A DNA stretch of 64,000 nt, taken from assembly GCA_022709385.1 (NCBI GenBank), contig JAKLIX010000010.1, forward strand, positions 89,529-153,528, in the 5' to 3' direction. Under the pieces are notes generated by a model, which did no database searches, was not told the origin of the DNA, and saw only the letters and a program-made list of their open reading frames with translations. The position numbers and the translations under genes were made by a program. This stretch comes from Bacteroidota bacterium. Its GTDB lineage: Bacteria; Bacteroidota; Bacteroidia; Bacteroidales; CAIXZF01. This document shows, piece after piece, positions 10,710-57,215 of the stretch (positions are counted from its first letter, which is position 1; every line of letters starts with the position of its first letter).

Positions 10710-11995
10710 TGTTTGACAAGTGTTTGATAAACCTGGAAGACGTTTTTGGCCGCATTCTCCCATTTGAGATTCTCTACTTCGGCCTTGCCTTTCCGGCTGA
10801 AAATATCATAAAGCACCGGATAATGCAGGATGCCGTAAATGGCGTCGGCCATGGCCTCGATATCCCAGAAATCAACTTTTACGGCATGTTTCAGGACTTC
10901 GGCCACGCCGCTTTGTTTGGAGATGACCACGGGTACATTGGAGCGCATGGCCTCGAGCGGTGATATCCCGAAGGGTTCGGAGATGGAGGGCATCACATAC
11001 ACATCGCTGAGGGCAAACATCTTATCCACGTCATCACCTTTTAAAAATCCGGTAAAGTGAAAACGGGTGCCGATGCCGAGCTGGGCCACCCGCCTGACCA
11101 TTTTGTTCATCAGGTCTCCCGATCCTGCCATGACAAAACGAACATGAGGATCTTTCTCAAGGATGCGGTAGGCTGCTTCGATAAAGTACTCGGGTCCTTT
11201 CTGGAAGGTGATCCGGCCCAGAAAAGTAACCACCTTCTCCTTCACATGCTTGCGGTATTGAATGTCTTCCCGGCGAATGACCGGTTCAACGGCATTATGT
11301 ACCGTGAAGACCTTGGCAGGATCGATCCCGTACCTTTCGATGACGATCTTACGTGTAAGATTGCTGACGGTAATCACCCGGTCGGCTTCCTCCATGCCTT
11401 TTCTTTCGATGTCGTAAACAACCTGGTTTACGTTCTCGCCGCTGCGGTCAAATTCGGTGGCATGCATGTGAACCACCAGGGGTTTGCCGGATACGTGCTT
11501 GGCCCAGATACCCGCAGGATAGGTAAGCCAGTCGTGGGCATGCACCAGGTCGAACTGCTCCATATCCGCGATCCTGGATGCCACCAGCGCATAGTTGCTC
11601 ACTTCTTCCATCAGGTTGAGCCCGTATTTGCCCGAGAAATCGTATTTGCGTGAATATACCGGCCTGACACTGGTCTCTTCATAAACACGCTGCTCTTCGA
11701 TCAGTCTTTCATATTCCTCGAAACTGGCATAGGGTACGAGGTTTGAACCAACTTCCACATAGGTCAGGTTTTCCCTGATTTCGGAAGTGATGTGCTCTTC
11801 CCCGAAAAAAACCTCGATATCACTGGCATTGATCAGCCTGACAGCCTCCTGGCTTTCGTCACCGTATGCTTTCGGAACGACGAACAATACCTCCGTGCCT
11901 TGTTTCAGCAGGCCTTTGGTCAAACCGAAGCAGGCAGTTCCGAGTCCGCCGGTAATATGCGGAGGAAATTCCCAGCCAAACATCAATACCCTCAT
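10706..11995 (-). CDS. GT4-family glycosyltransferase (glycogen synthase-like)
   Basis: MRVLMFGWEFPPHITGGLGTAC and the C-terminal EPFGISPLEAM motif. It lies between the debranching enzyme and GH57. Confidence 0.8.
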   Translation of the reverse strand: MRVLMFGWEFPPHITGGLGTACFGLTKGLLKQGTEVLFVVPKAYGDESQEAVRLINASDIEVFFGEEHITSEIRENLTYVEVGSNLVPYASFEEYERLIEEQRVYEETSVRPVYSRKYDFSGKYGLNLMEEVSNYALVASRIADMEQFDLVHAHDWLTYPAGIWAKHVSGKPLVVHMHATEFDRSGENVNQVVYDIERKGMEEADRVITVSNLTRKIVIERYGIDPAKVFTVHNAVEPVIRREDIQYRKHVKEKVVTFLGRITFQKGPEYFIEAAYRILEKDPHVRFVMAGSGDLMNKMVRRVAQLGIGTRFHFTGFLKGDDVDKMFALSDVYVMPSISEPFGISPLEAMRSNVPVVISKQSGVAEVLKHAVKVDFWDIEAMADAIYGILHYPVLYDIFSRKGKAEVENLKWENAAKNVFQVYQTLVKQ

Positions 11996-12007
11996 AGGAC
12001 CTTGCTT

Positions 12008-13963
12008 TTATTGTTCATCAGACAATTCATATTCATTCATCAACATTTTCACACGCAACAATTCACCAACGCTCCAGGCCATGGAAATGGCACCTCCGAA
12101 ATGATGCGGCGGATCTCCGTCGTAAATCTCTGAAATGCTGCCAATGCCATGTTCCCTGATGCTTGATTCAAAGCCTGAGTAAACCTTGTTTATCAACGAA
12201 AGGCCTGATTTTCCGTGGATTCGCAGGTATGCAGCCGCGAAATGCCCGAACAGCCATGGATATACAGTTCCCTGGTGGGCTGCGGATTCCCTGGCTTCAT
12301 GCCTGCCGTGGCAGATGCCATGGTATTTAGGATCTTTTGGTGAGAGCGTGCGCAAACCGCGTGGTGTGAGTAATTCGGATTTTACCGTATCCAATGCTTT
12401 TTTCCGTATTTCTTCAGAAAGAGGGCTGTATGGCAGGGAGGCGGCAATCACCTGGTTTGGTCTGATACTCCAGTCCTGACGCCCCTGGCAAACTACATCT
12501 GCAAGATATCCCCTTTCTTCGTTCCAGAATAGCGTTTCGAAGGCCTTCCCAACCTTCGCAGCAAGTGCTTCCCATTCCCGGGCTGCTTTTTTATCTGCCG
12601 CCGTCTGGAGCAACTCAGCTGTAAAACACAGGGCATTGTACCATAAAGCATTGACCTCTACTGCCTTGCCTCTGCGAAGGCATACCGCCTTACCATCTAA
12701 CATGGCATCCATCCAGGTCATGGGCAGTTTTTCTTCCCTGATTTCAAGCAGACCATCCTGATCCATGGCAATATTATCCCATTGCCCGTCCCTGTATGCA
12801 TTGAGAATCTCCAGAAGGAAGGGGGCATAGCGTTTGCGGATTTCTTTCAGTGTTCCGGTATATGCCGCGTACTGTTGCAGTGCCGCAAAAAGCCAGAGCA
12901 AACTGTCGGCCGTAGCAGGCTGTTGGTTTTCGTTCTTATCCGTAAAGAAAAAGTATCTGTCTTTTTCGCGGATCATGGTGTCTGCCACACTGAGGAAGTT
13001 CTGGGTACGGCCGTCCACCAGGCACAGACCCGGCAAAGCGACCAGGGCATCCCTGGCCCGGACACCGTACCAGGGAAAACCCGCCAGCACTTCCGTATTG
13101 CCTTCCCGTTTAAAAATAAACTGATGGGCAGAATTGATCAGACAATTCTCAAATGTGTTTCTCGGGATTCTTCTGTCCACTTCCAGGTCGAACAGTTTCT
13201 TCAGATCTTTCGGATCAACCTCATTGAGGCCGGCCGTAAAATAGACGCTTTCTCCCTTTTTCAGCGGCAGCTCGAAATAGCCGGGAACGAACAGATCTTC
13301 CAGGTAGTCGTATCCCCGCTCCAGTTCTTCAATATACTCAATGTTATGATACCAGTCCGGCACGTGGATGTAGTCATGTTTCTTCGAAAGCTGTATCATC
13401 ATCGGGTAGTAACCCTCGTACAGGCACATCCGTATTCCGTTGGGAATGGCCTGGTACCTGGTATCGGCAAAGATGTTTTCCTTCGAAAGGCTGTGCCGGC
13501 TGCGGAAAGCCAGAAATGGCCTCAGCCTGATCAGGGTGGGGGAGTGGGCGTCCTGCAGGGTGTACTTGATGATAACCCTGGCTTCGTCGTGCGTGAACAA
13601 CATCTCCTTGGTAAGGAAAACTCCTCCGATCCGGAAGGTGAGTTTGGGTATGGGTTCAGTGGTAAAGTCCCTGAGGTATTTATGTCCCTTGGGGTTGTAA
13701 TAACCACCTTTGTACCGGTGGATCCCGAGATTGAAGGGAGCATCCTGCTGAATCACAGTCTCGTCGACACTCGATAACAGCACGTGATATTCACCGTCCA
13801 GCGCAGGCTGCCTGGTGATCAGCAAGCCGTGGTATTTGCGTGTGTTGCATCCGGTCAGGGTAGTGCTGGAAAACGATCCTGCGCGGTTGGATCGCAACAA
13901 TTCCTTGGTCAGGGAATACTCCAGGTTGATCAGTTGCAATTTGTCAAATTCTATATAACTCAT
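12008..13963 (-). CDS. Glycogen debranching enzyme (amylo-alpha-1,6-glucosidase family)
   Basis: SNRAGSFSSTTLTGCNTRKYHGLL N-terminal motif and a C-terminal (alpha/alpha)6 GDE-like region (HQGTVYPWLFGHF). Confidence 0.8.
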   Translation of the reverse strand: MSYIEFDKLQLINLEYSLTKELLRSNRAGSFSSTTLTGCNTRKYHGLLITRQPALDGEYHVLLSSVDETVIQQDAPFNLGIHRYKGGYYNPKGHKYLRDFTTEPIPKLTFRIGGVFLTKEMLFTHDEARVIIKYTLQDAHSPTLIRLRPFLAFRSRHSLSKENIFADTRYQAIPNGIRMCLYEGYYPMMIQLSKKHDYIHVPDWYHNIEYIEELERGYDYLEDLFVPGYFELPLKKGESVYFTAGLNEVDPKDLKKLFDLEVDRRIPRNTFENCLINSAHQFIFKREGNTEVLAGFPWYGVRARDALVALPGLCLVDGRTQNFLSVADTMIREKDRYFFFTDKNENQQPATADSLLWLFAALQQYAAYTGTLKEIRKRYAPFLLEILNAYRDGQWDNIAMDQDGLLEIREEKLPMTWMDAMLDGKAVCLRRGKAVEVNALWYNALCFTAELLQTAADKKAAREWEALAAKVGKAFETLFWNEERGYLADVVCQGRQDWSIRPNQVIAASLPYSPLSEEIRKKALDTVKSELLTPRGLRTLSPKDPKYHGICHGRHEARESAAHQGTVYPWLFGHFAAAYLRIHGKSGLSLINKVYSGFESSIREHGIGSISEIYDGDPPHHFGGAISMAWSVGELLRVKMLMNEYELSDEQ

Positions 13964-14018: not shown

Positions 14019-14094
14019 ATGGATATCTTTTTAACGGGTCTGTGGCCCGCGTGGAATGCGTAAAGTTAACACTTATTTAATGATTCAGTTCACC

Positions 14095-19323: not shown

Positions 19324-20730
19324 ATGAAAGGACTCCAGAATATTGTCAGGGACGATGTGATCTGTGCCCTTGCCACATCGCCGGGAGTGGGAGCTGTTGC
19401 CCTGATAAGGGTTTCCGGTAACGGCTGCCTGCAACTGCTTGACGGCATCTTCAGGGCTTCCGGCAAGGGCAAGCGCTTGCAGGAACAACCCGGATACACC
19501 ATCCTTCACGGTTGGATCATGGATGGCGATAGTCCTTTGGATGAGGTGCTGGTCAGTGTTTTCCGCTCACCGCACAGCTATACCGGAGAGGAAATGGCTG
19601 AGATCGGCATTCATGGATCCTTATTTATTCAGGAAAAGGTGCTTGCATTACTGGTTTCGCGATCCTGCCGCATGGCCGGTCCTGGTGAATTCACCCTGAG
19701 AGCCTTTTTGAACGGGAAGCTTGATCTTTCGCAGGCTGAGGCCGTCGCAGATCTGATCGCAAGCAATTCGGTCACTTCCCATGGCCTGGCCCTGAACCAG
19801 ATGCGGGGTAACTTTTCATTGAAAATAAAAGCGCTGCGGCAACAGTTGATCGACCTGGCCGCCTTGCTCGAACTGGAGTTGGATTTCAGTGAGGAAGAGG
19901 TGGAATTTGCTGACAGGGATCAGTTCATGGAGATACTGTCGCAGCTTGAGAAGGAGATCCGGGAACTGCTTCGTTCCTTTTCAACCGGCAATGTGATGAA
20001 ACACGGCATTCCTGTGGCCATCACGGGCAAGCCCAACGTAGGAAAATCCACCCTGCTGAATGCCATATTGAACGAAGACCGGGCCCTGGTTTCAGAGGTA
20101 CCCGGCACCACAAGGGATACCATCGAGGACATCATCAACCTGGGCGGCAACGTGTTCCGTTTCATTGATACGGCCGGCCTGCGGCATACCACCGACCATG
20201 TCGAGAACATGGGCATCGAACGCAGCAGGGAAAAGATCGCACAAGCCCACATTGTACTTTATGTGTTTGACATCACTGCCATAGAACCGGCAGATCTGCA
20301 GGAAGCCCTGCATGAGGTCGGGAGCTGGGCGGAGGAAAGAGAACTGCTGATCATTCCGGTTGCCAATAAAACTGATCTGCTGGTGGAGTCGCCGGCTCAT
20401 TTCGCCAAACTGGTGGAGATGGGGACGATCTTTGTTTCGGCCAAGCGAAAGGAGAATATCAACCTGATCCTTGAAACCCTGCAACGCTCGGCCATGAAAC
20501 CCGGAGGCAGCGACCAGGTCATCCTTTCCAGCAACCGGCATATGGAGGCCCTCGACCTTGCCCTGCAATCCCTGCTGGCTGTCCGGGATGGTTTTCGTAA
20601 TCAGCAGCTTCCCGATCTCATCGCGGCCGATCTCCGCCTCGCCCTCCATCACCTGGGTACCATCACCGGTGAGATCGTCCCCGACGATATCCTCGGTTCG
20701 GTGTTCAGCAGGTTTTGTATCGGAAAGTAA
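19324..20730 (+). CDS. mnmE: tRNA modification GTPase MnmE (TrmE)
   Basis: G-domain GKPNVGKSTLLN, DTAGLR and NKTD, with the C-terminal FCIGK tetrapeptide motif. Confidence 0.9.
   Translation: MKGLQNIVRDDVICALATSPGVGAVALIRVSGNGCLQLLDGIFRASGKGKRLQEQPGYTILHGWIMDGDSPLDEVLVSVFRSPHSYTGEEMAEIGIHGSLFIQEKVLALLVSRSCRMAGPGEFTLRAFLNGKLDLSQAEAVADLIASNSVTSHGLALNQMRGNFSLKIKALRQQLIDLAALLELELDFSEEEVEFADRDQFMEILSQLEKEIRELLRSFSTGNVMKHGIPVAITGKPNVGKSTLLNAILNEDRALVSEVPGTTRDTIEDIINLGGNVFRFIDTAGLRHTTDHVENMGIERSREKIAQAHIVLYVFDITAIEPADLQEALHEVGSWAEERELLIIPVANKTDLLVESPAHFAKLVEMGTIFVSAKRKENINLILETLQRSAMKPGGSDQVILSSNRHMEALDLALQSLLAVRDGFRNQQLPDLIAADLRLALHHLGTITGEIVPDDILGSVFSRFCIGK
20713..20730 (+). repeat. 18-bp direct repeat, left copy (last 18 nt of mnmE including the stop)
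   Basis: TTTTGTATCGGAAAGTAA is identical to 22309-22326. Confidence 0.7.
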
Positions 20731-20755
20731 ATATCATTGATAACGATCTGTTTTA

Positions 20756-20857
20756 ATACCGACACGAAATGAGTTTGCGAAGAAATTGCGATACAAGGGT
20801 GTACTGCATTACTCATGCTAAACAGCTTTGCATTCGCAAACCATTCCGCGTCGGTAT
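20756..20857. mobile_element. MITE-like 102-bp element with 17-bp imperfect terminal inverted repeats
   Basis: Left end ATACCGACACGAAATGA; the reverse complement of the right end is ATACCGACGCGGAATGG. There is a subterminal inverted repeat GTTTGCGAA/TTCGCAAAC. A related inverted copy lies at 38605-38691, and terminal fragments lie at 55078-55106 and 57437-57465. Confidence 0.5.
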
Positions 20858-20896
20858 AATTTCAAATCAAGTTAATAAAAATGACCAATCAATAAT

Positions 20897-22000
20897 ATGA
20901 TGGCGCTTCATCCTGAAATACCAAATAATGAACTGCCTTTGTTGCCACCCGACAGGGATGCAATTGAAACCAAAGCCATTTTAAGGCAGGAAAGCAAGGC
21001 AGCCGTTGCACTGGCTGAGTTAAAAGGTTTGGCGCATACACTGCCAAACCAGAATATTCTTATCAATGCAATTGTTCTGAAAGAAGCTAAAGCTTCATCC
21101 GAAATTGAGAACGTGATAACCACCCACGATTCATTATACCAGGCATTAACAGCCAAATCATTCAAACCCGATTCTGCCACCAAAGAGGTGCTTCGCTACC
21201 GGGAGGCCTTGTTTGCAGGTACTGAGTTTATCCGCAACAACCGATTTTTAAGCACAAATGGCATCATTCAGGTACAGAATATTCTTGAAGGAAACACCGC
21301 AGGGCTTCGCCAATTGCCCGGTACAACCTTAAAAAACGATGTCACCGGAGAGACAATCTACACCCCACCCGATGATAAAGATGCCATTAAAGAGCTGATG
21401 TCTAATCTGGAGAAATTCCTCAATATAGATGAAGATGATGATATTTCGCCACTCATCAAGCTTGCGGTTCAGCATTACCAGTTTGAAAGCATCCATCCAT
21501 TTTATGATGGCAACGGCAGAACAGGTCGAATAGTAAATGTCCTTTACCTGATGCTGAAAGGCTTATTGGATAGTCCGATATTGTACCTCAGCGGATTCAT
21601 CATTCGTAACAAAGGTGAGTATTACCGCCTTTTAAGAGATGTTACTTTTAACTCTAATTGGGAACCCTGGGTACTTTACATTCTGAAAGGCATTGAGCAA
21701 ACTGCAGCAGAAACCATCGGACAGGTAAACAATATTAATGGCCTGATCCTCGAAACCATAAACATTGTAAAGGAAAAAACACCTCGTATTTACAGTAAAG
21801 ATTTGATTGAGATACTTTTTGAACAGCCCTATTGTAAAATTGATTTTTTGGTAGACAATCTAAAAATTGAAAGAAAAGCAGCATCAAGATATTTGCAAAG
21901 TCTGGAAGAAACAGGTATTCTCACTGTTCAGAAAATCGGTCGGGAAAACATTTACATCAATACAAAACTGTTTGAATTGTTGAAGGGAAATAACAAATAA
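20897..22000 (+). CDS. Fic-family protein (AMPylase type, class II auto-inhibited)
   Basis: Canonical Fic motif HPFYDGNGRTGR. The N-terminal inhibitory-helix motif SSEIEN fits (S/T)xxxE(G/N). The C-terminus is winged-helix-like. Confidence 0.85.
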   Translation: MMALHPEIPNNELPLLPPDRDAIETKAILRQESKAAVALAELKGLAHTLPNQNILINAIVLKEAKASSEIENVITTHDSLYQALTAKSFKPDSATKEVLRYREALFAGTEFIRNNRFLSTNGIIQVQNILEGNTAGLRQLPGTTLKNDVTGETIYTPPDDKDAIKELMSNLEKFLNIDEDDDISPLIKLAVQHYQFESIHPFYDGNGRTGRIVNVLYLMLKGLLDSPILYLSGFIIRNKGEYYRLLRDVTFNSNWEPWVLYILKGIEQTAAETIGQVNNINGLILETINIVKEKTPRIYSKDLIEILFEQPYCKIDFLVDNLKIERKAASRYLQSLEETGILTVQKIGRENIYINTKLFELLKGNNK

Positions 22001-22213
22001 CATGACCCAAGATGGTACTCATATTTAAAACGTGTACCATAATTTTATTTTTTGGTACACATAAAAAGAATATGAGACATTTTGGTACAGATACAAAACT
22101 ACTGATAATGAATAAATTAAAGGTAAAGCAATTGAAAATGTTGAATCAGGACAATAATCAGGACATGCTGTCCCGATTATCAGAAACAAGGGCAAATTCC
22201 CCAAAATTCTTCC

Positions 22214-22221
22214 TATCTTTG
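22214..22221 (+). promoter_or_regulatory. -7 box TATCTTTG
   Basis: Matches TAnnTTTG, 120 nt upstream of the ATG at 22342. It lies inside the segment bounded by the 18-bp repeats. Confidence 0.3.
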
Positions 22222-22308
22222 CATTACGATTTCAGTTGATATTTGATTTTTTGTTGCCCATTCGTTGCTCAAAATACATAATTAACTGATAATCAATATC
22301 ACTTTACA

Positions 22309-22326
22309 TTTTGTATCGGAAAGTAA
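22309..22326 (+). repeat. 18-bp direct repeat, right copy
   Basis: TTTTGTATCGGAAAGTAA is identical to the mnmE 3' end at 20713-20730. Confidence 0.7.
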
Positions 22327-22341
22327 TCAATACCCCTGTAG

Positions 22342-22644
22342 ATGGAACAAAACTCCCAACTTCTTGGAGAGATTGCGCAGATACTGAATAAGATGAACAG
22401 GCAGGAACTGCTGTCGGTGAATAAGATGCTTATCCAACGCATCAGAATACTGGATGAGATCAGGCTGCTTTCGGAGAAGGCAGGCTTTCAGGTTGGATGC
22501 AGGGTGTCATGGACCGACGGGGAGGGGATGCTCCGAAGAGGGACTGTCGCCCGGATCAATCAAAAAACGATTTCAGTGATTGAGGACGGGATTACCGACG
22601 GGAGATGGAAGATTTCAGCTTCATTGCTGACGAGGCTTCCTTAG
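22342..22644 (+). CDS. Hypothetical 100-aa protein
   Basis: ORF followed by a strong hairpin. No recognisable motif. Confidence 0.4.
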   Translation: MEQNSQLLGEIAQILNKMNRQELLSVNKMLIQRIRILDEIRLLSEKAGFQVGCRVSWTDGEGMLRRGTVARINQKTISVIEDGITDGRWKISASLLTRLP

Positions 22645-22648: not shown

Positions 22649-22685
22649 AAAACCGGGATTCCACTGTGGGTGAAATCCCGGTTTT
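22649..22685. terminator. Bidirectional terminator hairpin between convergent genes
   Basis: aaaaccgggatt / aatcccggtttt, a 12-bp stem with a 13-nt loop. The A-run and T-run flanks let it work in both directions. Confidence 0.65.
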
Positions 22686-38604: not shown

Positions 38605-38691
38605 GGTTTGCGAATGCAAAGCTGTTTAGTAGGAGTAATACCGTACACCCCTGGATCGTAATTTTCTCCCAAACTCATTCCGTGTCGGTAT
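38605..38691. repeat. Inverted, partly degenerate copy of the MITE-like element at 20756-20857
   Basis: ggtttgcgaatgcaaagctgtttag...caaactcattccgtgtcggtat aligns to the reverse complement of 20756-20842. Confidence 0.5.
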
Positions 38692-38735
38692 AATTGCTTT
38701 CGGCTTTTTTAATGTCCCGGGCTTCCGGGAAGCGG

Positions 38736-42471: not shown

Positions 42472-45400
42472 ATGAGAATCAAACATTTTATTCTAATTGC
42501 ACTTGCCACAATATATGGCACACTGCATGGGCAAATAATTGGTGAAGAGAATGATCCTCTTTATTCAGCACCTATCTTACCGCCCTCTCCCACTGCGAGT
42601 GAATTGGGTAAATATGGACAAATTCCAATCGGACTTTTCACTGGAACACCAGATATCAAAATCCCCCTTTTTACCCTAGAAGGTAAGAATTTAAATTTGC
42701 CTATTTCTCTCAGTTATAACTGCAACGGTGTGAAAGTAGACCAGATAGCTTCCTGGGTTGGAATGGGCTGGTCCTTGAATGCGGGTGGTGTTATAACAAG
42801 AGTGGTGCGGGACGAACCCGACGATCTTGAAGAGCGAAATATGAGAGATGACTTTGAACCCATTACTGAAGAATTACTTGAGTACATGCAGGCAACCTTT
42901 ACGAATTCAAGTATATACGACACAGAACCAGATCTTTTTTGTTTTAATTTTTGTGGATTTTCAGGAAAGTTCGTTTTAGATAATGAACTGAAGCCTGTTC
43001 AGATTCCACATTCAAATCTAATTATTGAAACAAATAACCTTGAAACAGGAGAACTTACTGACATTGTCATCATCGGGCCAGATGGCGTTAAATATTACTT
43101 TGGCGGGATTTACACTGAAAAGTCAAAAACACTACAATCCGGAGGAGCAATGTGCGGTAAAAACTATAGTGAATTAGTAAATACTGCCTGGTATCTCTAT
43201 AAAATTGAAAATATTTACAGTGAAAAAATCCTGTTAACCTATTCATCTAATCAGTATTCCACGTACACCGGAATTTCACAAACCATTCGGATTAACTATG
43301 GTAATGAGAACGTTCCTGATGGTTGTCCTGATCAATTCAGCACCGGAACATGTTACTCCCTTTTGTCCGTATTATCATATCATTTAACGAATATCAGTTC
43401 CGATTTTGGCGGTACGGTGGATTTTATAAGCTCAAATGACAGACAGGATATGAGTACCCCAGGTGATGCCAAATTAAACGAAATCATATACAAAGATAGT
43501 CAGGGGAATGTCATGGCCTCGGATTCTCTTATCTATACCTACTCATCAGCAAGCGGTCAGGTTCATGGTGATCTTGAACATCTCCGGAAAAGACTTTTCC
43601 TGACGCAGGTAATAACCAGGGATGAAAATAAGAATACTGAGATGAAGCATCTTTTATATTATAATAACATTGACGGATTGCCACCCAGGCTATCATTTTC
43701 TCAGGATCATTGGGGATATTATAATGGACAGGAGAATACTATATTTGTCCCACATGTTGATGATTGGGAAAGTCTGTTCGGACTTTCGGGTGTTGGTGGC
43801 GGTAACAGAGAACCTTTTGACCCATACAGTAAATACGGGCTTCTTTCGTCAATCATTTACCCAACTGGCGGCCATACTGATTTTGAATATGAACCGAATA
43901 CTGTTTTTGACGATGTTACCATTTATCCTCCACATAGCATTGATTATGCAGATATAAACGGATTGCATGAACCCAATTACGAATCCATTACGGTACTTAA
44001 TCAACTTAGTCAGAAATTCGACATCAAGGTCGGAGTTACATCGACAGAACCGCCACCAGGTCTGCCACATGATCACAAAGGCCAGTTTATTTTATTTGAC
44101 AACACAACATCAACCACCATTTTGAACTGCTATATATCATTTAACAATCCAAATCTAATATTCAAACCTGAATTAGAGGAAAATCACAGTTATACTTTTA
44201 CTATCTATGCCTTTGGTGATGGTACAACCACTAACCTAACAATTAAATACTACACTTCAGCACCCATGGTAAATCAGACTAATGTTCTGAGTGGAGGCTG
44301 CCGCGTCAAGAAGGTGACATCAGTAGCTTCAATTGATTCAGAACCGGTTATTCTTCGATACTTCTATAACAAGCTTTCAAATATGGAAGAATCCTCCGGT
44401 GTTAGCTGCATACCACCTGTTTACTTTTTCAATAACCAGGTTCAGATTAGAACACCAACCTCGGGATCAATCCCTTGCCTTTCCGGAACTTGCTATTATG
44501 TAACCAAGACATCCAACAGTATACATCCTCTTTATAACTATTGTAATAACACAACTGTTTATGAGTGGGTAACTGTTTCTCAGGGGGAAAATTTTGAAAA
44601 TGGAGGTGAGGAACATCAATACCTCATTACAGAAGATCAGGCTGGCCAGCAAATTGCCGGATTCCAGATGATTCCAAACGCACTTAGATCTAATAACAGT
44701 TGGCAGTCAGGTGAAGAAAAATACTATCGCATTTTTTCAAAATCTTCGACCGGAGAATTTATTACACTGACGGAAACCAACAATTTCTTTTCAATAGACA
44801 ACAGTAACAACAATAGTTTATTTGGGCTTGTTGGCAGACAGATATCACCTTATCCCCCTTGTTATGATATGAACGCATATTATTTGCTTTTCAATTTCTA
44901 TGATTTGATCAAGTATGAAATTTTTTCTCAATGGAAATATCTAAGTTATTCTGTTACAAAAAAATATGATCAGAACGGATTAAATCCCATTGTTGATACA
45001 TTACAATTCTTCTATGAAAATCCCCTTCATTGTAACCTCTCAAAAAAGATTCAGCCCAAATCAGGCCATGGCAGATTTATTCAGACTTACAAATACCCTC
45101 TTGATTTTATCTGTCCCGAGAGCCCTGTTGATCCTGTTGTTTCAGGAGTTAAACAATTGCAGGATCATAACCTTATAAATACTGTCCTGGAACGTTCAAA
45201 CTGGATTATTTCCCCAAACAGCGCAGAATCCAGATTGGTTAACAGTGAGATGATTAAATATATTCCTTCCTCATCAGGCATTCCTTTCGCTTCGGAGGTG
45301 TTTCAGTTAGAAATCAACGAACCTATAACGGATTTCAGTCCCATAAGTATTGATAACGGTACCTTTATTCATGATTTCCGATATGTGAATTCAATTACCC

Positions 45401-46143
45401 TGAACGAATATGATGCCGATGGTAACATTTTGGAGCTTTTTGACAGGACTGAAGGATATAAATCCTTCAAATGGAACCCTAATTCGAAACGACTGGAAGC
45501 GGTCGTTCAGAATGCACGTAACAATGCGTGCAGTTACACTGGATTCGAAGTGCAACAGACCAATAACTGGAACAGCTACCTGGATGCAGGAAACAGCATT
45601 GAATATAACATAAGTCATGTGCATTCGGGATTGTCCTCACTGAAAGTAAACTCCGCAACTGGTGCAGTTCATGATTTTCATATCTCATCAGATATTGTCG
45701 GTAATCATCCGGGTTTCAAGGCTTCAGTCTGGGTAAAGGGCAACAACTATGCCTATATAAATATTGAAGTAAAAGATAATCATGCCGCAACCTTCAGACG
45801 GAAATACAATTTCGGCAGCGAAAATGAATGGCACCTTCTGGAGATTGAATTGCCAAGAGAGGTACTGATACTCCACCAGTATAATCTTTGGATACGGGTA
45901 TATGCAGGAAATGACGGAGGGAGTGCCGTTTATCTTGATGATATCCGTTTCCTGCCAATAGATGCTGAAATGGTGACCTATTCATTTGACTATATGGGAA
46001 GAATCATTTCAAGGACAGATGAAAGGAATTTCCCATCTTATTATGAATATGACGCCATGGGTCGTTTAAACATCATCAGAGATCACCTGGGTAACATTGT
46101 CAAAAAGCATAACTATAACTTTAAGGAAATCAGCAATTATTGA
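42472..46143 (+). CDS. 1223-aa secreted protein: SpvB/TcB-N-terminal-like motif, long unassigned middle, two YD-type repeats at the C-terminus
   Basis: Signal peptide MRIKHFILIALATIYGTLHGQ. Residues about 40-115 read GLFTGTPDIKIPLFTLEGKNLNLPISLSYNCNG...SWVGMGWSLNAGGVITRVVRDEPDD, resembling the SpvB-domain start of TcB proteins. The C-terminal end reads YSFDYMGRIISRTDERNFPSYYEYDAMGRLNIIRDHLGN. Confidence 0.6.
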   Translation: MRIKHFILIALATIYGTLHGQIIGEENDPLYSAPILPPSPTASELGKYGQIPIGLFTGTPDIKIPLFTLEGKNLNLPISLSYNCNGVKVDQIASWVGMGWSLNAGGVITRVVRDEPDDLEERNMRDDFEPITEELLEYMQATFTNSSIYDTEPDLFCFNFCGFSGKFVLDNELKPVQIPHSNLIIETNNLETGELTDIVIIGPDGVKYYFGGIYTEKSKTLQSGGAMCGKNYSELVNTAWYLYKIENIYSEKILLTYSSNQYSTYTGISQTIRINYGNENVPDGCPDQFSTGTCYSLLSVLSYHLTNISSDFGGTVDFISSNDRQDMSTPGDAKLNEIIYKDSQGNVMASDSLIYTYSSASGQVHGDLEHLRKRLFLTQVITRDENKNTEMKHLLYYNNIDGLPPRLSFSQDHWGYYNGQENTIFVPHVDDWESLFGLSGVGGGNREPFDPYSKYGLLSSIIYPTGGHTDFEYEPNTVFDDVTIYPPHSIDYADINGLHEPNYESITVLNQLSQKFDIKVGVTSTEPPPGLPHDHKGQFILFDNTTSTTILNCYISFNNPNLIFKPELEENHSYTFTIYAFGDGTTTNLTIKYYTSAPMVNQTNVLSGGCRVKKVTSVASIDSEPVILRYFYNKLSNMEESSGVSCIPPVYFFNNQVQIRTPTSGSIPCLSGTCYYVTKTSNSIHPLYNYCNNTTVYEWVTVSQGENFENGGEEHQYLITEDQAGQQIAGFQMIPNALRSNNSWQSGEEKYYRIFSKSSTGEFITLTETNNFFSIDNSNNNSLFGLVGRQISPYPPCYDMNAYYLLFNFYDLIKYEIFSQWKYLSYSVTKKYDQNGLNPIVDTLQFFYENPLHCNLSKKIQPKSGHGRFIQTYKYPLDFICPESPVDPVVSGVKQLQDHNLINTVLERSNWIISPNSAESRLVNSEMIKYIPSSSGIPFASEVFQLEINEPITDFSPISIDNGTFIHDFRYVNSITLNEYDADGNILELFDRTEGYKSFKWNPNSKRLEAVVQNARNNACSYTGFEVQQTNNWNSYLDAGNSIEYNISHVHSGLSSLKVNSATGAVHDFHISSDIVGNHPGFKASVWVKGNNYAYINIEVKDNHAATFRRKYNFGSENEWHLLEIELPREVLILHQYNLWIRVYAGNDGGSAVYLDDIRFLPIDAEMVTYSFDYMGRIISRTDERNFPSYYEYDAMGRLNIIRDHLGNIVKKHNYNFKEISNY

Positions 46144-46261
46144 TAACCCCATTAAATGACAATGTTTGACAGACTGCAACAGTAAATGATCATAAACCTT
46201 GACATTCTCCAGCATGAAACGGGACATCCATGTGACCATTGAAATCTAAAATTATGAACAA

Positions 46262-48370
46262 ATGAAAAAATTAAAGTTCCTTATTATCTGCTTATTAGCA
46301 CTTTATCCACCCTCTGCTATGGCACAATATTATTCATTAAAATGGAACAGAACCATTGGCAATCCGGGATGGGAACTGGTAAGCACAGCAGTAAGTGATA
46401 CCAGTCGCAATTTTTACATTGCAGGCAGCACGTGCAATAAAGCATTATCGGACCAATTATTAACCACCGCACTCCATAACCGTCAGGCCTTCATCCTTAA
46501 AACAGATTCATCCGGTTTGCATGTCTGGATAAAGTATCTTGGTGACAAGGCTAACTGTGACATTCATTCGATGCAATATAATGATAACACAATATACGTT
46601 TCAGGAGGCTTCTCCGATACCTTGGTTATCGATGGTTTTCGGATATCCGCTTCCGGCAGAAGGGGACTCTTCATTGCAGCATTTTCAACTGACGGTACTA
46701 CAAAATGGTTAACAAAACTGGAATATGACTCCTTTAAACCACTCAGATCGAATCTTTGCATTTCTCCTGACGGGAAAGAAATGTACATTATAGTTACTTT
46801 CTCAGGAGATATTATTCGTGTACCTCGGAAGAAAAATCCTGACAATCAGGTGAAACTTGCAGTTTTTAAGCTTAGTACTGAAGGACTTCATTCAGATTAC
46901 TTTATATGCGGTTCTGACAAAGAGATTGTGGGAACTTCATTGCTTCTGAATCAAAATAAACTTTTCCTTGCAGGTCGTTTTAAGGGTGAAATAAGCTTCA
47001 ACGATAAACTGATACAATCAGCTGGCGGGTATGATGCCTATATTGCTGTTCTTACGGATAGCCTGAAACCTGTGAGAATTTCAACATATGGCAGTTTCCT
47101 GGATGATGAGGTCTCAAACCTTATTTCGGATTGCAACAATGATATTATCGCAGCAGGTTCATTTATGGAAAGCGTTTGGTTTAATCCGCAGATTACTACT
47201 GCAAAGGGATGTAAAGATGTTTTCCTCTTAAAAGCTGATTCAGCATTAGCGATCCATTGGGTTAAGCAAATATCCGGCAAGGGTAATGAACAGGTTTATT
47301 CAATTGGATGCGGAAATAACGGAGATATAATTGTTTCAGGCAGTCATTCTCAGGACTGCATTTTTAATATCCACGATGTGGCAAAAGATATCCCTAAATC
47401 TGAAAGTGGCTTTAATAATGCATTTCTTGCCATTTTCAGCAGCCAGGGAGTTTTCCTGTCCTCAGTCCATTTCCCCGGAACATCGGAAACAACCTGTAAG
47501 GCAGTACTTACTGAAAGCAACAACGATCTTTATTGCATAGGAAATTTCACCGGTCAGATATCAGTTCCATCGTATGACAAAAAGACTACATCATCCAGGT
47601 ATCATACCAAAGGTGATCAGGACATTTTTATGGCATGTTACGGATACAATTGTGACAACATTAACCTGAATCTCAATAACGACAGCATATTGTGCATAAA
47701 CAAATTCTTGACCATTGATGCAGGGCCGGATTATGTAAACTATCAATGGCTGCCTTCAGGTAATGATACTCGTTTTGAATATATAAATCAACCTGGCTGG
47801 TACTCAGTAACAGTCAAAGACACTTTTGGCTGTATTGCAAAGGACAGCATTCGGATAAAACTGTCAGAATATCCTTTGGTATATGCCGGACAAGATACCT
47901 CCATTGCTCGCGGCAAAGAATATCTGTGCAGATCTGCTTTCACAAAAAATACGACCGGTTATTACTGGACTACGCAGGGTAATGGTACATTCGATGATTA
48001 CTCCAAACTGCATCCCATGTATTATCCTTCATGGAGTGACTTGCTTGGAGACCGGATAATATTGGAACTGCATGGATCAAACGATTGTGGTGATCATGTA
48101 GATAATATTACTATTGATCTTCTTGATGAAGGAATTGTAACTGTCAGTCCAAATCCAACTACCGGAATGATAACAATTTTAACAAATCAAGACAATAATA
48201 CATTCGGGTTTGTAGATATTTTAACCGGTGAAGGAACGCTGCTGAAACGATTGACATCATCTGAGTTATCATCCTTAAGTGTTGACCTTTCAAAATATCC
48301 TTCTGGTACTTACCTTATAAGATATTTTGATAACGAGGGTTCAGGAGTATTCCGCATTACAAAACTGTAA
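46262..48370 (+). CDS. Secreted beta-propeller-like (SBBP-type repeat) protein with T9SS C-terminal sorting domain
   Basis: Signal peptide. Repeated pattern ...FYIAGS...AFILKTDSSGLHVW / IYVSGGF...LFIAAFSTDGTTKW / LFLAGRF...DAYIAVL. The C-terminus VSPNPTTGMITIL...YPSGTYLIRYFDNEGSGVFRITKL fits a Por/T9SS type-A CTD. Confidence 0.65.
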   Translation: MKKLKFLIICLLALYPPSAMAQYYSLKWNRTIGNPGWELVSTAVSDTSRNFYIAGSTCNKALSDQLLTTALHNRQAFILKTDSSGLHVWIKYLGDKANCDIHSMQYNDNTIYVSGGFSDTLVIDGFRISASGRRGLFIAAFSTDGTTKWLTKLEYDSFKPLRSNLCISPDGKEMYIIVTFSGDIIRVPRKKNPDNQVKLAVFKLSTEGLHSDYFICGSDKEIVGTSLLLNQNKLFLAGRFKGEISFNDKLIQSAGGYDAYIAVLTDSLKPVRISTYGSFLDDEVSNLISDCNNDIIAAGSFMESVWFNPQITTAKGCKDVFLLKADSALAIHWVKQISGKGNEQVYSIGCGNNGDIIVSGSHSQDCIFNIHDVAKDIPKSESGFNNAFLAIFSSQGVFLSSVHFPGTSETTCKAVLTESNNDLYCIGNFTGQISVPSYDKKTTSSRYHTKGDQDIFMACYGYNCDNINLNLNNDSILCINKFLTIDAGPDYVNYQWLPSGNDTRFEYINQPGWYSVTVKDTFGCIAKDSIRIKLSEYPLVYAGQDTSIARGKEYLCRSAFTKNTTGYYWTTQGNGTFDDYSKLHPMYYPSWSDLLGDRIILELHGSNDCGDHVDNITIDLLDEGIVTVSPNPTTGMITILTNQDNNTFGFVDILTGEGTLLKRLTSSELSSLSVDLSKYPSGTYLIRYFDNEGSGVFRITKL

Positions 48371-48404
48371 TTGTTTTTTATTTTGATTGAACAATCTGTA
48401 ATCT

Positions 48405-51400
48405 ATGAACAAAGCAATCTTTACTGTTTTCATCACAGTATCGTTAACGAATGGTCTGTTCCCTCAGGGTGTGGAGCTGAATTACATACAAACCTTTGAG
48501 CTGCTGAACACCGGATATAACCTATCAAGTCAGGTCAATTCTTCCATGAATGCCTTTGACGTAAAGGAAACAGTGCAATTTTTTGATGGACTTGGACGGC
48601 CGGTACAAACTACCCAAAGACGAACGGCCCCCGGTCAGAATGATCTTGTTCAGTTCTTTACTTACGATGCTTTCAGCCGTGATGTAAATAATTATTTACC
48701 TTTTGTTACACAAGCATTTGGATATCTTCTGGCTGATCCTGTGAGTGCCCAAAGTAATTTTTACACAAGTAGTCCGGATGTTGCTCATGATCCCTACCCA
48801 AAATCCCCGCTTGTCTATGAGAATTCTCCCATGAACAGAAACATCGCATCAGGGCATCCCGGAGAAAGTGGTCAAACACCAGAGGATCATATGGTAATCA
48901 CTGAATACCTTACCAATGTGGCTGCTGATGAAATGCTTAGCGCAAGCAGGTGGTCAGTTGATGATGCCGGTGATTGTGTTTTTAATGGTGAATTTGCTAC
49001 AGGACATCTTAATGTCTTGAAGACCACGGATGAAAACGGAAATATCATCCTTGAATTTAAAAATAAGCAGGAGCAGGTTGTTCTGAAACGATCACATTCG
49101 TGTAGCATTAACATGGACACGTATTATGTGTACGATGATTTCGGATTACTGCGTTTCGTAATTTCACCCAAAGGATCGGATTTGCTGAACAGTACTTTTA
49201 TCGCCCAGTGCATGCTGGCACGAATGTATGTCTACAGTTACCAATACGATAAAAGGCACAGGATGATATCGAAGAAGATACCAGGCAAAGAAATTGAATA
49301 TTTTGTCTATGACAACAGCGACAGGATCACTCTGAGTCAGGATGGCAATCTGCGGGCGGAAGGTCAATGGTTATTTCATAAGTATGACGCACTTGGCCGA
49401 ATAGTAATCACAGGAATAAGCGATTACGGATCTTCATATTCTCAGCAACAGATGCAACAATATATTGATGGTCAGGATTTTGTCTCGGAATACCGCTGCT
49501 ATGATAATATGGCCGTACTGCATGGATATACCAACCGTGTTGCACCGGACCTGATAAATGATGCGGTTGATATTCTGACTGTTAACTATTACGATAATTA
49601 TTCAATATGGGAACAGACTCAACAGGGTCTTGCTTCACACCCTGTTTATGATGATGCAGCACTTGCATTTACGACAAACTCAATTACTTCTTTGTATGAA
49701 CCGGAACATCTCGACGGAAAATTAACTGTAAGTAAGGTGAAATATATCAATGAATATGACACTCCCCTCTGGCTGACCACCTGCAATTATTATGATATTT
49801 ACGGAAGACTTATCCAAATAAACAGCAATAACCAAAAAGGTGGGTATGAACGCACATCAAATGCTTATAATGGACTAAGTAACAACATTATTCAAAGTTT
49901 AAACACCCACTCATCAATCATATCTAACATCAGCAATACATTCACAAGGCATGTGAGCTATACCTATGATCACGCACAGCGTCCTTTGACCACACAATAT
50001 CTTTTCAACAATGATCTTTCCTGCACAGTGGCATATGAATACAACAGTCTGGGACAACTGATTGAAAAGAATGTAAGTGAGGCAGTTGATCTGCAATCCA
50101 CTGACTTCACTTATAATATCAGGGGATGGCTGGAGAAGATCAATAATTCACTCCTGACTACCAATGGTGAAACCCCAACGGATCTTTTCGGCATGGAGTT
50201 GTATTACGATCAGGTTCATGCTTCCTTCGGCAATATCCCCCAGTACAATGGCAATATTTCAGCCATGGTATGGCAGTCGAACCCTCACGGACGTTTTGCC
50301 TATACATTCGCCTATGACGGATTAAACCGCCTGCTTGACGGAAACTTCCATGAGCAAAGTGAGGGCAGTTGGGACCAAACTGATCATTATTCTGAAAAAC
50401 AACTCAGTTATGACAAAAATGGCAATATCCTTACCCTTCACCGTTACGGTCAGATATTACCTACCGGCACGGCAGGAATGATCGATGATCTGAACCAGTT
50501 TTATTATTTCGGCAACCAGCTTATCGGATTAAATGACAGCCAGTTAGCTCCAACCGAAAGAGATTTCCAGGACAATGGTTCCACGGAAGCAGCCAATCAG
50601 AACAACCTGGAAACATGGGAGTATCACTATGACCCAAATGGCAATCTGGTAATTGACAAGAACAAAGGCATCCTTGCCATTCACTATAACCATCTGAACC
50701 TCCCCACAGAAATAATTTTTCAGGATAATAACAGGATGAAGTACTTTTACGATGCCGCAGGCAGCAAAAGAAGGAAAGAAGTGTATACCGAAGGCATTAA
50801 AACCTCCGTCCTGGATTATGCCGGCTCCGTCGTTTACCGCGATGATGCCCCTTCTTATGCGGTGTTTGAAGAAGGAAGAATCCTGATCAATCCAGAAGAA
50901 ACCAACTTTATCGAGTATCACCTGAAAGATCACCTTGGCAACGTAAGGGTGGCATACAAGGAGGACAACGGCCTGCCGGTGGCCCTGCAAACCAACACCT
51001 ACTACCCATTTGGGATGCTGATCTCCGAACTTTCCACTCCAGACCTCAACTGTCCCAATCCCCTGAAATACAACGCCAAAGAGCTCCAGCCGGACTTCGG
51101 GCTGGATTGGTATGATTACGGAGCCAGGTTCTATGACCCGCAGGTTGGGAGATGGTGGGGAGTGGATCCGTTGGCGGAGAAATCCCGGAGATGGTCTCCT
51201 TATCATTATTGCATGAACAACCCGATCCGGTTTATCGATCCGGACGGGATGGACACTATATCCGCCCAACAAGGTGACAAGCAACCAGTTAAGAAAGATG
51301 ATGTTGTTAAATTGGAAGATGGAACTGAAATAACTGTAAGTTGTGATGAAGTTGAGGTGGTTGGAAGTAAAACCGAAAATGCAACAAAGAACCAAGAACA

Positions 51401-51767
51401 ACCAAGTTCTAAAACATCAGCTGGCATTGTTATTTCTATCCCAACTATTACAATAAGGGTTTCCCCAGTGGTTGAAGTCTTCTTAGGGGCTGTAGCTAGA
51501 TTTTTACCCTTGATTTTTCTTCAAGGAGATACTTCTCCAAATCAAAAAATGGATCAAGCAAGAAGCAAGGCTAAAGATGAAAATAAAATGAAAGGAGGAA
51601 AACAAAATGCCAGAGATCGAGATTATGGAATTAAAGATCCAGATTTTTGGAAGTGGTGGCATAGAAAAGGGAAACCTCAGAGTGGAGGGAAAGATATTGG
51701 CAGCAAAAGCCAAGCAGAGGAAATATTCAAAGATTGGGTAAATAAAGGGAAACCAAAAGCGAAATGA
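48405..51767 (+). CDS. Rhs/YD-repeat polymorphic toxin: DUF6443-like N-terminus, YD repeats, Rhs core ending [10 protein letters not shown], and a 171-aa variable tip (CT1)
   Basis: Signal-like N-terminus. NYIQTFELL...VQFFDGLGRPVQT...FTYDAFSRDVNNYLPF is DUF6443-like. There are at least 10 YD repeats. The core reads [48 protein letters not shown]. Confidence 0.85.
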   Translation: MNKAIFTVFITVSLTNGLFPQGVELNYIQTFELLNTGYNLSSQVNSSMNAFDVKETVQFFDGLGRPVQTTQRRTAPGQNDLVQFFTYDAFSRDVNNYLPFVTQAFGYLLADPVSAQSNFYTSSPDVAHDPYPKSPLVYENSPMNRNIASGHPGESGQTPEDHMVITEYLTNVAADEMLSASRWSVDDAGDCVFNGEFATGHLNVLKTTDENGNIILEFKNKQEQVVLKRSHSCSINMDTYYVYDDFGLLRFVISPKGSDLLNSTFIAQCMLARMYVYSYQYDKRHRMISKKIPGKEIEYFVYDNSDRITLSQDGNLRAEGQWLFHKYDALGRIVITGISDYGSSYSQQQMQQYIDGQDFVSEYRCYDNMAVLHGYTNRVAPDLINDAVDILTVNYYDNYSIWEQTQQGLASHPVYDDAALAFTTNSITSLYEPEHLDGKLTVSKVKYINEYDTPLWLTTCNYYDIYGRLIQINSNNQKGGYERTSNAYNGLSNNIIQSLNTHSSIISNISNTFTRHVSYTYDHAQRPLTTQYLFNNDLSCTVAYEYNSLGQLIEKNVSEAVDLQSTDFTYNIRGWLEKINNSLLTTNGETPTDLFGMELYYDQVHASFGNIPQYNGNISAMVWQSNPHGRFAYTFAYDGLNRLLDGNFHEQSEGSWDQTDHYSEKQLSYDKNGNILTLHRYGQILPTGTAGMIDDLNQFYYFGNQLIGLNDSQLAPTERDFQDNGSTEAANQNNLETWEYHYDPNGNLVIDKNKGILAIHYNHLNLPTEIIFQDNNRMKYFYDAAGSKRRKEVYTEGIKTSVLDYAGSVVYRDDAPSYAVFEEGRILINPEETNFIEYHLKDHLGNVRVAYKEDNGLPVALQTNTYYPFGMLISELSTPDLNCPNPLKYNAKELQPDFGLDWYDYGARFYDPQVGRWWGVDPLAEKSRRWSPYHYCMNNPIRFIDPDGMDTISAQQGDKQPVKKDDVVKLEDGTEITVSCDEVEVVGSKTENATKNQEQPSSKTSAGIVISIPTITIRVSPVVEVFLGAVARFLPLIFLQGDTSPNQKMDQARSKAKDENKMKGGKQNARDRDYGIKDPDFWKWWHRKGKPQSGGKDIGSKSQAEEIFKDWVNKGKPKAK
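50728..51252 (+). repeat. 525-bp Rhs-core 3' block shared with orphan cassettes 2 and 3 (and its last 145 bp with orphan 1)
   Basis: Aligns without gaps to 55103-55627 and 57462-57986; I found 6 mismatches. 51108-51252 aligns to 52434-52578. Confidence 0.85.
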
Positions 51768-52162
51768 AAGAGTTATTAGTCTTAAAGAATAAAATTAGCA
51801 ATGAAGACATCGAGATAATCGAGTCTTCATTGAGAGTACTAAAGTCTCACGATAAAAAGAAATTCATTCAAACTATTAATAGAATGAAACTCATTTTTAT
51901 TGAAATAGATGATATTCAAATACTTAATAAAATATCATTAATATTTTCAGCCTTTTCGATTCATTCTTCAGTACCCATATTGATTGGCAAATTGATCAGT
52001 GGTAAATACGATAATAATGGAGGAACACTAGTATATTCCTTAAAAGGTTTGAAATTTTTAGACTATAAAGAGGAATTATCATATCTTTGGGAAAAGAATA
52101 TTAGTTATGAGATGAAAGAAATGTTAAAGTTGATAAATATTTACCCCCCCCCCGCCGCTTGA
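51764..52162 (+). CDS. Candidate immunity protein for CT1 (132 aa)
   Basis: ATGA start/stop overlap with the rhs gene. AT-rich, with no signal peptide. The call rests on position only. Confidence 0.55.
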   Translation: MKELLVLKNKISNEDIEIIESSLRVLKSHDKKKFIQTINRMKLIFIEIDDIQILNKISLIFSAFSIHSSVPILIGKLISGKYDNNGGTLVYSLKGLKFLDYKEELSYLWEKNISYEMKEMLKLINIYPPPAA

Positions 52163-52418
52163 ATTGACACATAATAAAGAGAAAGAACAGCAAAACCCCA
52201 AGCAATTACTTGGGGTAATTGTTAATCCGTGAGGGGGCAGAAGCCCCCAAAACAAGCGGAGGGAGAGGTGATAGGGGGCGAAAGACTGCCTTTTTTTCTT
52301 TTTCTGAAGAAAACAACTGATAAAAATGATGTTCAATTAAAAGAAAATGTTCATACATTTAGTGGAACAAAGCGTTCTTTGAATAAGCAATTTGGAGCAG
52401 AAGCTGAAAAACAGGTAA

Positions 52419-53660: not shown

Positions 53661-53707
53661 TTGTTTGCTAAAAGAATTACTCATATTAAAATTAAATAAA
53701 TTAAGCC

Positions 53708-54085: not shown

Positions 54086-54118
54086 ACAGAAAAGCCCGGT
54101 TATCTGGGGTTTTCTGTT
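54085..54118 (+). terminator. Terminator hairpin after the orphan-1 cassette
   Basis: aacagaaaagccc-ggttatct-ggggttttctgtt. Confidence 0.55.
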
Positions 54119-56334: not shown

Positions 56335-56339
56335 TTTTG
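56332..56339 (+). promoter_or_regulatory. -7 box TAATTTTG overlapping the stop codon of orphan tip 2
   Basis: Matches TAnnTTTG and ends 8 nt before the ATG at 56348. The context is AT-rich, so a chance match is possible. Confidence 0.25.
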
Positions 56340-56347
56340 AGCTGATT

Positions 56348-57142: not shown

Positions 57143-57215
57143 ATAGCGTTGGCAGTTTTTACTTACTTTTCACTTCACTTTCCTCTTCCGTTTTGTCCCT
57201 TTTACCTTTAATTCT

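Follow-up and report, generated by a model that had tools for sequence, protein, structure and literature searches.

The window analysed here is a 64,000-nt stretch of DNA from a Bacteroidota bacterium, and its host is Bacteroidales-like according to sequence searches. It carries a 1.6-kb islet with a Fic gene directly downstream of mnmE, which encodes a tRNA modification GTPase. This islet is very probably the remainder of an integrative defence island of Bacteroidales that attaches at the last 18 nt of mnmE, with the integrase lost and internal segments deleted. What is new here is that the mnmE end is used as an attachment site in Bacteroidales by several distinct integrase-bearing elements and defence islands, beyond those of the SGI1 (Salmonella genomic island 1) type. 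A literature search returned no report of mnmE-end integration in Bacteroidota.

The islet lies between two copies of the mnmE end

The 18-mer TTTTGTATCGGAAAGTAA has two exact copies in the window. The first is formed by the last five codons and the stop codon of MnmE (FCIGK*), the second lies beyond the Fic gene, and 1,578 bp (20731–22308) separate them. The repeat is exactly 18 nt long because the neighbouring bases differ on both sides of the copies. The window contains no further match to TTTTGTATCGGAAAGTAA at up to three mismatches, and the pair is the sole exact repeat of 18 nt or more outside the repeat-rich RHS toxin zone (42–60 kb). By chance, 0.03 exact 18-mer pairs are expected in 64 kb, and none of 100 dinucleotide-preserving shuffles of the window had two TTTTGTATCGGAAAGTAA matches. 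An earlier note, made from the sequence alone, had reported this repeat of the gene end including its stop and had judged a chance pair unlikely; both statements hold. Few gene ends in bacteria are as conserved as these 18 nt, which encode FCIGK-stop. We also inspected 78 other mnmE loci (genome representatives plus two closer relatives), and in none of them is the own gene end (last 18 nt, ≤2 mismatches) repeated in the downstream flank of up to 10 kb.

The right arm is the terminus of larger defence islands

The segment that abuts the second copy, referred to as the right arm (P arm), is the conserved terminus of an element family found in at least five other hosts. It always stands against a host-specific core resembling the FCIGK-stop end, after which unrelated host DNA follows. 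Two of these contigs, L122 and L123, were found by scanning metagenome contigs for a 21-mer from the right-arm segment. L124 (JGI contig Ga0645977_000006; 3300078562) and L134 were reached via protein relatives of the L123-type DUF6266 protein. L120 carries a Fic 95% identical to that of the window on a contig with the same right arm. Specifically, its Fic gene is followed by a fossil of the DUF6266 3' end, a terminator, a right arm of ca. 105 bp (ca. 90% identical), the core TATTGTATCGGAAAATAA, and an unrelated host gene. L123 has two copies of IS21, a DnaJ-like gene, DUF6266, a terminator, the right arm, and the core TTCTGCATCGGAAAGTAA; in L122, the right arm is followed by the core TTTTGCATAGGGAAATAA.

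L124 and L134 are larger and share the order hsdR, SoFic, a small open reading frame (ORF), pAgo, TmtA, DnaJ-like gene, DUF6266, terminator, right arm, and core. TmtA is intact in L124 and replaced by two shorter ORFs in L134, which alone has an IS110. The two islands are 95–98% identical and reside in different hosts. Their homology ends at position 10846, inside the core, and their cores (TATTGTATCGGAAAGTAG in L124 and TATTGCATCGGAAAGTAA in L134) differ at third codon positions. The Fic gene of both has 84–85% DNA identity to window 20912–21851, and their right arm, 87–88% identical to window 22194–22325, lies ca. 9.5 kb beyond Fic. In the window, Fic gene and right arm are only 200 bp apart, as against ca. 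9.5 kb in these two islands.

The cores of the family vary at third codon positions and at the stop codon, and conserved element DNA lies on their left. In L120, L124, and L134, the core starts with TAT, which is unable to encode the Phe codon of the gene end. The genes after right arm and core in other hosts are unrelated to each other and comprise Ldh_2, a QSregVF_b-like gene, and a 230-aa ORF. A constant right arm against a host-variable core is the signature left when an element integrates site-specifically at mnmE ends in several hosts. The attR core is probably for the most part the displaced end of the host gene. The five attR sequences, which include no attL of the right-arm family, would place the crossover near the left edge of the 18-mer. 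By analogy with L124 and L134, the 3' part of the attL core in the window was probably supplied by the element. In its gene order, L120 reads as an independent, slightly less complete deletion product. DUF6266 had no match in IMG/VR. A separate DUF6266 clade (P0249) was set aside, as it occurs in unrelated contexts with neither an mnmE core nor the right arm.

The Fic module moved between distant hosts

A gene for a Fic protein 90% identical to that of the window adjoins mnmE on its downstream side in another Bacteroidales species (L091–L096). This species shares the upstream gene order with the window, but MnmE identity between the two is only 54%. At the DNA level, host genes of the two species are 64–70% identical (mnmE, 67.5%), whereas identity to L091 reaches 85.5% over window 20900–22201, which covers Fic and 200 bp of the non-coding DNA behind it. 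Identity at third codon positions is 70% for Fic and 43% for mnmE. As the DNA identity of Fic is far above that of host genes, these comparisons indicate that the Fic module entered at least one of the two lineages long after their split. The islet of L091 and L096 is composed of Fic and a nonsense-mutated 23S-rRNA-IVP gene, and is bounded by its own 23-nt direct repeat of the mnmE end, TCTGTATCGGAAAGTAATCCTTT. The islet of the window is a mosaic, with a Fic 3' flank of L091 type up to 22201 and a right arm of L120/L123/L124 type. In the species of L091, the islet next to mnmE is a hot spot where additional elements insert. Some of its strains have three adjacent tyrosine recombinase genes (recombinase-in-trio) and an IS21 past L091 position 9618, a homology break inside the IVP pseudogene of the islet; the trio lies at L095 3601–6845 (minus strand), and IS21 is found in L092 and L095.

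Other close Fic relatives occur in mobile or defence settings of other kinds: L097 in a type I restriction-modification locus, L101 in an island that has an integrase and a type III restriction-modification system, and L102 in a WYL region rich in IS elements. In annotated plasmid and phage collections, only the generic Fic core was matched.

All same-species contigs long enough to show the site carry the islet. Three short same-species assemblies (L004, L005, and L006) break ca. 250–275 bp past the mnmE stop (window ca. 20977–21006), inside the conserved N-terminus of Fic. We rejected these breaks as polymorphism and read them as assembly collapse on a Fic gene shared among community members; they are consistent with a gene common to several members at 85–96% identity. 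L090, with 70% MnmE identity, lacks the islet and has a convergent Rrf2 gene after mnmE. When GTDB representative genomes were searched with MnmE, the best match was 53% identical, with no common synteny and no close empty site. In L089, the closest relative (83% MnmE), the contig stops 37 bp past the mnmE stop. The stretch L089 9450–9486 is by eye ca. 78% identical to the DNA after the attR core in L122 (reverse strand, 1008–970), which runs into a 123-aa ORF and an IS200/IS605-like transposase gene. From this likeness, it would seem that another element family has docked at this site, perhaps in tandem.

Tyrosine integrases accompany the mnmE core in other elements

A tblastn search with four integrase queries found no integrase in the islet or elsewhere in the 64-kb window. 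We scanned IMG/VR for TTYTGTATCGGAAAGTAA and obtained 12 contigs. In L108, L112, and L116, the core ends an mnmE fragment, and a tyrosine integrase with Arm-DNA-bind_5, Phage_int_SAM_5, and Phage_integrase domains lies within ca. 0.2–0.9 kb. In L114 and L119, the core has non-mnmE DNA on both sides and is attP-like. L110 has a 217-aa ORF and a segment weakly similar to the right arm (shared block CTGATAATCAATA) before the core, and an integrase of the same architecture 195 bp after it. Judged by these domains and their positions, several Bacteroidota element families use the mnmE core with heterobivalent tyrosine integrases. By analogy with the other families at this core, the right-arm family would use such an integrase as well. 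Arm-binding (heterobivalent) tyrosine integrases normally need arm sites on both sides.

Contents of the islet

The GC content is 30–44% inside the islet versus ca. 52–56% in the flanks, and Fic is the only real gene within it (Table 1). The gene product has Fic_N, Fic, and SoFic-like_C domains (Pfam). Its translation carries the motif HPFYDGNGRTGR and an N-terminal inhibitory SSEIEN. It thereby shows the Fic motif HxFx(D/E)GNGRxxR, the inhibitory helix (S/T)xxxE(G/N), and the C-terminal domain by which class II Fic proteins of the SoFic type are recognized. It aligns over the full length with SoFic structures in PDB (E~1e-94) and with the PADLOC SoFic model (E=2.7e-117), and scores 443.8 against NCBIfam ProtAdlyltaseSoFic, below the equivalog cut-off of 550. 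SoFic is a single-gene anti-phage defence, a toxic AMP-transferase that acts via abortive infection (PMC12249575). By domains, motifs, and structural matches, the islet Fic is a SoFic-type abortive-infection AMP-transferase, for which a defence role is predicted.

Table 1. Features in and around the islet, with positions in the window
Feature	Position	Strand	Evidence or remark
mnmE (tRNA modification GTPase, 468 aa), target gene	19324..20730	+	TrmE_N, MnmE_helical, MMR_HSR1 domains; ends FCIGK*
attL core, final 18 nt of mnmE with stop, part of the present functional gene end	20713..20730	+	exact repeat
Residual left junction, 26 bp, core to MITE	20731..20756		no homology found to left ends of other elements
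MITE-like element, 100 bp, secondary insertion	20757..20856		ca. 25-nt terminal inverted repeats, TAA/TAA flanks
SoFic-type class II Fic AMP-transferase, 367 aa, sole cargo gene	20897..22000	+	Pfam, NCBIfam, PDB, and PADLOC matches
Non-coding segment accompanying Fic	22001..22201	+	homologous to L091 (as far as 22201), L097 (as far as 22100), and L120 (as far as ca. 22122)
Right arm (P arm), 106 bp	22203..22308	+	87–92% identical to right termini in L120, L122, L123, L124/L125, L134/L135
attR core, second copy of the mnmE end	22309..22326	+	exact repeat
Host gene, 100-aa protein	22342..22644	+	ORF, host-like GC; hairpin terminator 22649–22685

Between the left junction and Fic lies an element with the characters of a miniature inverted-repeat transposable element (MITE), being short, non-coding, bounded by terminal inverted repeats and a target-site duplication, and present in several copies. 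Its hairpin has a z-score of −3.7. A second, partial copy at 38605–38691 (38605–38693 as a member of the repeat family) is 87% identical, and the terminal motif CCATTC(C/G)G(C/T)GTCGGTATAA occurs four times in the window versus 0.01 expected. Two of the four motifs (55088–55106 and 57447–57465) are inside RHS cassette repeats. The MITE is absent from the related islets L091 and L120.

The non-coding DNA after Fic (22001–22308) is 308 bp long, has ca. 30% GC, and consists of two parts, the Fic 3' flank and the right arm. The MITE-like element, the class II Fic gene with SSEIEN, and ca. 300 bp of very AT-rich non-coding DNA had all been described in the earlier note, and the description is accurate. 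Rfam and tRNA scans of the window found nothing. A consensus RNA fold of the Fic 3' flank predicts a long hairpin with no compensatory changes and hence no covariation support. A scan with a sigma-70 promoter model, which is unsuited to Bacteroidota, and for terminators gave no signal above shuffled expectation. A 75-aa ORF (22012–22239, plus strand), called a gene in public metagenome annotations, is probably non-coding, as it is interrupted in L091, L120, and L097. An inverted repeat between the attL core and 22076–22099 (75% complementary) and a 20-nt direct repeat around attR (D7) are not kept in family members and were taken as chance.

The 100-aa protein encoded after attR has no match in Pfam, NCBIfam, or PADLOC and no relatives at all in the JGI metagenome scan. 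With the islet removed in silico, the ATG of its gene lies 15 nt past the mnmE stop, and the two genes likely form an operon in the empty site. The right arm may supply an outward promoter to the 100-aa gene. A Bacteroidetes-type TAnnTTTG box (TATCTTTG, 22214–22221) lies within the right arm, 5' of this gene.

Origin of the islet and alternative explanations

The islet would have formed as follows. A tyrosine integrase with an arm-binding N-terminal domain would have recombined the attP of the element, which carries a near-copy of the 18 nt of mnmE, with the mnmE end, leaving one core per junction and regenerating the gene end. Deletions would then have removed all but the SoFic module, its 3' flank, and the 106-bp right arm, and with the left arm and integrase lost, a MITE would have inserted. 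The attL core survives because it is coding sequence. The earlier note had proposed an attL/attR pair from a tyrosine-recombinase-mediated insertion. The pair itself is supported by the conserved right terminus, the end of L124/L134 homology in the core, the 23-bp repeat in L091, and the integrases in IMG/VR, while we infer the tyrosine-recombinase step. Between the two fates offered in that note, a decayed remnant is favoured because larger relatives carry the same Fic gene and right arm ca. 9.5 kb apart; minimal cargo mobilised in trans is less supported. The left arm is reduced to at most 26–42 bp. As it is nearly gone and arm-binding integrases normally need both arms, the islet by itself is probably immobile. 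If a related element lands beside it, it could at best be moved passively as a cis-mobilizable element (CIME). The islet has the make-up of a CIME or decayed element, in that it is bounded by attL and attR, has no integrase, excisionase, or transfer genes inside, and derives from a larger element by deletion.

Several observations weigh against this origin. The L124 and L134 contigs end before the left end, so that neither the left end nor the integrase of the right-arm family has been seen. The right arm of the L091 islet is unrelated to that of the window, and the two Fic islets at mnmE are therefore not simply one element. The attL and attR cores of the window are identical at 18 of 18 positions, which fits a recent event and also continuing recombination. 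Assembled contigs contained neither an empty site nor an excised circle for the window species. For these forms, the empty-site junction was reconstructed as CAGCAGG-core-TCAATACCCC (synthetic empty site GTGTTCAGCAGGTTTTGTATCGGAAAGTAATCAATACCCCTGTAG), and the circle junction of the excised islet as CACTTTACA-core-ATATCATTG (synthetic form ATCAATATCACTTTACATTTTGTATCGGAAAGTAAATATCATTGATAACG).

Some of the same observations could mean that the 1.6-kb unit is a live minimal element, i.e. a CIME or miniature integrative element that is excised and re-integrated in trans by an integrase encoded elsewhere or brought in by a relative. The cores are intact at both ends and identical, the conservation of the right arm is high (87–92%), and small Fic-only islets are present at mnmE in two distant hosts, with a short version in L120; CIMEs are moreover a documented category (PMC5704250). 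We nevertheless regard a live element as unlikely. Its left arm is almost absent, with 26 bp followed by the MITE, whereas the arm-binding domains of the integrases at this core imply that arm sites are needed on both sides. The islets of the window and L091 share neither end, and the DUF6266 3'-end fossil in L120 points to deletion rather than a designed minimal unit. The lack of an empty site or circle junction in assembled contigs and of an integrase in 64 kb also speaks against it. Much less probable still is that no site-specific recombination took place in this lineage, the mnmE-Fic block and its repeat having been inherited vertically or via homologous recombination through flanking genes, with the second copy persisting by chance or gene conversion. 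This would suit the presence of the islet on all sampled contigs of the species and the upstream synteny with the L091 species, which also has Fic after mnmE. Yet common descent of the islet is excluded by the gap between host genes (64–70%) and the Fic module (85.5%), the DNA downstream of attR is different in every host, and L090 lacks the islet despite 70% MnmE identity. Over such divergence, a non-coding copy should not stay identical at 18 of 18 positions (23 of 23 in L091).

The repeat could finally be a chance match, a target-site duplication of a transposase, or a regulatory element of the 100-aa gene, considering that it is short, lies in AT-rich DNA, and has the TAnnTTTG box TATCTTTG nearby, 5' of the 22342 gene. 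These possibilities are effectively refuted. Chance is countered by the expectation of 0.03 pairs and the shuffles. A regulatory role, which the earlier note had named as the observation that would overturn its proposal, is contradicted by other hosts, where right arm and core precede unrelated genes. In L120, L124, and L134, where the core starts with TAT, the two copies cannot both be host duplicates, as a target-site duplication would require, and transposases do not typically duplicate 18 nt at a single conserved site in many hosts. Insertion as an integron cassette or transposon was likewise rejected, given that no integron integrase is present, that the 18-nt direct repeat is at a fixed site in many hosts, and that the cores of L120, L124, and L134 start with the non-coding TAT.

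Comparison with known systems

The boundaries of SGI1 are 18-bp imperfect direct repeats located where thdF/trmE ends, and the last 18 bp of this gene serve as its attB (PMC3285670); the earlier note had stated this 18-bp target correctly. With SGI1 and related islands of Gammaproteobacteria (PMC3285670; PMC9035990), the islet has in common the target, the 18-bp repeats, the regenerated gene end, and accessory cargo. It differs in that the SGI1 backbone (int/xis, replication, and tra-like genes) is missing, the host is Bacteroidales-like, and the integrases at the mnmE core in relatives are of the Bacteroidota type with Arm-DNA-bind_5. The cargo is also different, being phage defence instead of an integron; in the larger relatives, hsdR, pAgo, TmtA, a DnaJ-like gene, and DUF6266 are present. 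The islet is not a member of the SGI1 family, and the shared target is convergence on a conserved gene end, not homology; the extreme conservation of the FCIGK-stop end accounts for it best.

The 3' ends of conserved genes are also the insertion sites of Bacteroidota integrative elements that have tyrosine integrases of the IntDOT/NBU type. The combination of Arm-DNA-bind_5, SAM_5, and catalytic domain beside the mnmE core in L108, L112, L116, and L110 is that of these elements, and so is the tolerance of core sequence differences between hosts; the window copy differs from them in having no integrase.

CIMEs (PMC5704250) are similar to the islet in that they have an att site on either side and lie where a conserved gene ends, in deriving from a larger element by deletion, and in the apparent tandem or other occupation of the site in relatives, here L122 and L089. 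Unlike them, the islet is in Bacteroidota instead of Firmicutes, has no accretion partner in the window, and has nearly lost the left arm, so that even cis-mobilisation is doubtful.

With SoFic defence (PADLOC; PMC12249575), the islet gene shares the full-length match to model and structures, the Fic motif, and the inhibitory helix, and its relatives lie in defence-island contexts with type I/III restriction-modification, pAgo, and TmtA. The E. coli SoFic gene has a 47-aa antitoxin gene (AS1) downstream (PMC12249575), whereas no conserved AS1-like small gene follows in the islet, whose 75-aa ORF is disrupted in the nearest relatives.

In Bacteroidales, elements of several families integrate at the mnmE end, which is thus a hot spot and offers a simple site, defined by its sequence, at which to search uncultured Bacteroidota for defence islands. 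The islands found there form a decay series that leads from the L124-type island of ca. 11 kb or more, with restriction-modification, SoFic, pAgo, and TmtA, via L120 to the single SoFic gene of the window. No new mechanism is revealed, and this kind of scar is already familiar.

C-terminal variants of Fic and their downstream motifs

We compared Fic proteins and the DNA past their genes (window 21842–22100) at eight loci, namely the window, L091, L097, L120, L124, L134, L101, and L102. Residues 1–315 are 86–96% identical, while the C-terminal winged-helix segment (residues 316–367) exists in two variants. The window-type variant is ca. 90% identical to the window over this segment, and the other variant only ca. 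50%. After the Fic stop of the window there are four GGTAC/GTACC motifs (22014–18, 22034–38, 22054–58, and 22084–88), and all four loci with the window variant have four GGTAC motifs past the stop codon. Three of the four loci with the other variant have four or five GGGCA/TGCCC motifs; the fourth, L102, has one, plus related TACCC motifs. The co-variation of domain and motif may reflect simple linkage through a block swap or binding of the array by the domain. In L124 and L134, the array of the other variant precedes the pAgo gene. Small ORFs of 34–54 aa follow the other Fic variant in L124, L134, L101, and L102.

A bolder scheme would link these motifs with mobility. Fic module and right arm would be a still-mobile miniature hitch-hiking on the integrases of mnmE islands, and the mnmE end would then be a shared 'docking bay' for defence genes across Bacteroidales. 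In view of the co-variation of two domain variants with two motif types at 8 of 8 loci, the winged helix of Fic would bind the downstream motif array, making SoFic a DNA-binding regulator or sensor of neighbouring defence genes. We hold this scheme to be doubtful.

Other observations

Degenerate matches to the CIGK-stop end occur 3' of mnmE in L011 (14/18) and L009 (12/18). Ca. 13 such matches are expected by chance over 80 loci, and they were not counted as att sites. The one in L011, a complete Bacteroidales chromosome, is at 14066–14083, 2.7 kb downstream and before a HipA-like toxin pair, and is not significant alone. Directly after mnmE, at 11504–12511, the same chromosome encodes a RhuM-like protein with the Doc/Fic-type C-terminal motif HSFVDGNKR.

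The window also contains an RHS/YD-repeat polymorphic toxin locus (42472–58657) with large RHS-repeat ORFs, one of them with DUF6443. After these ORFs come repeated cassettes, nearly identical and up to 905 bp long, for alternative C-terminal modules (pretoxin-HINT and Tox-URI2), and their arrangement looks like an orphan toxin-tip array. Conserved non-coding repeats are located at 42.05–42.19, 54.4–54.9, 57.2, and 59.3–60.0 kb.

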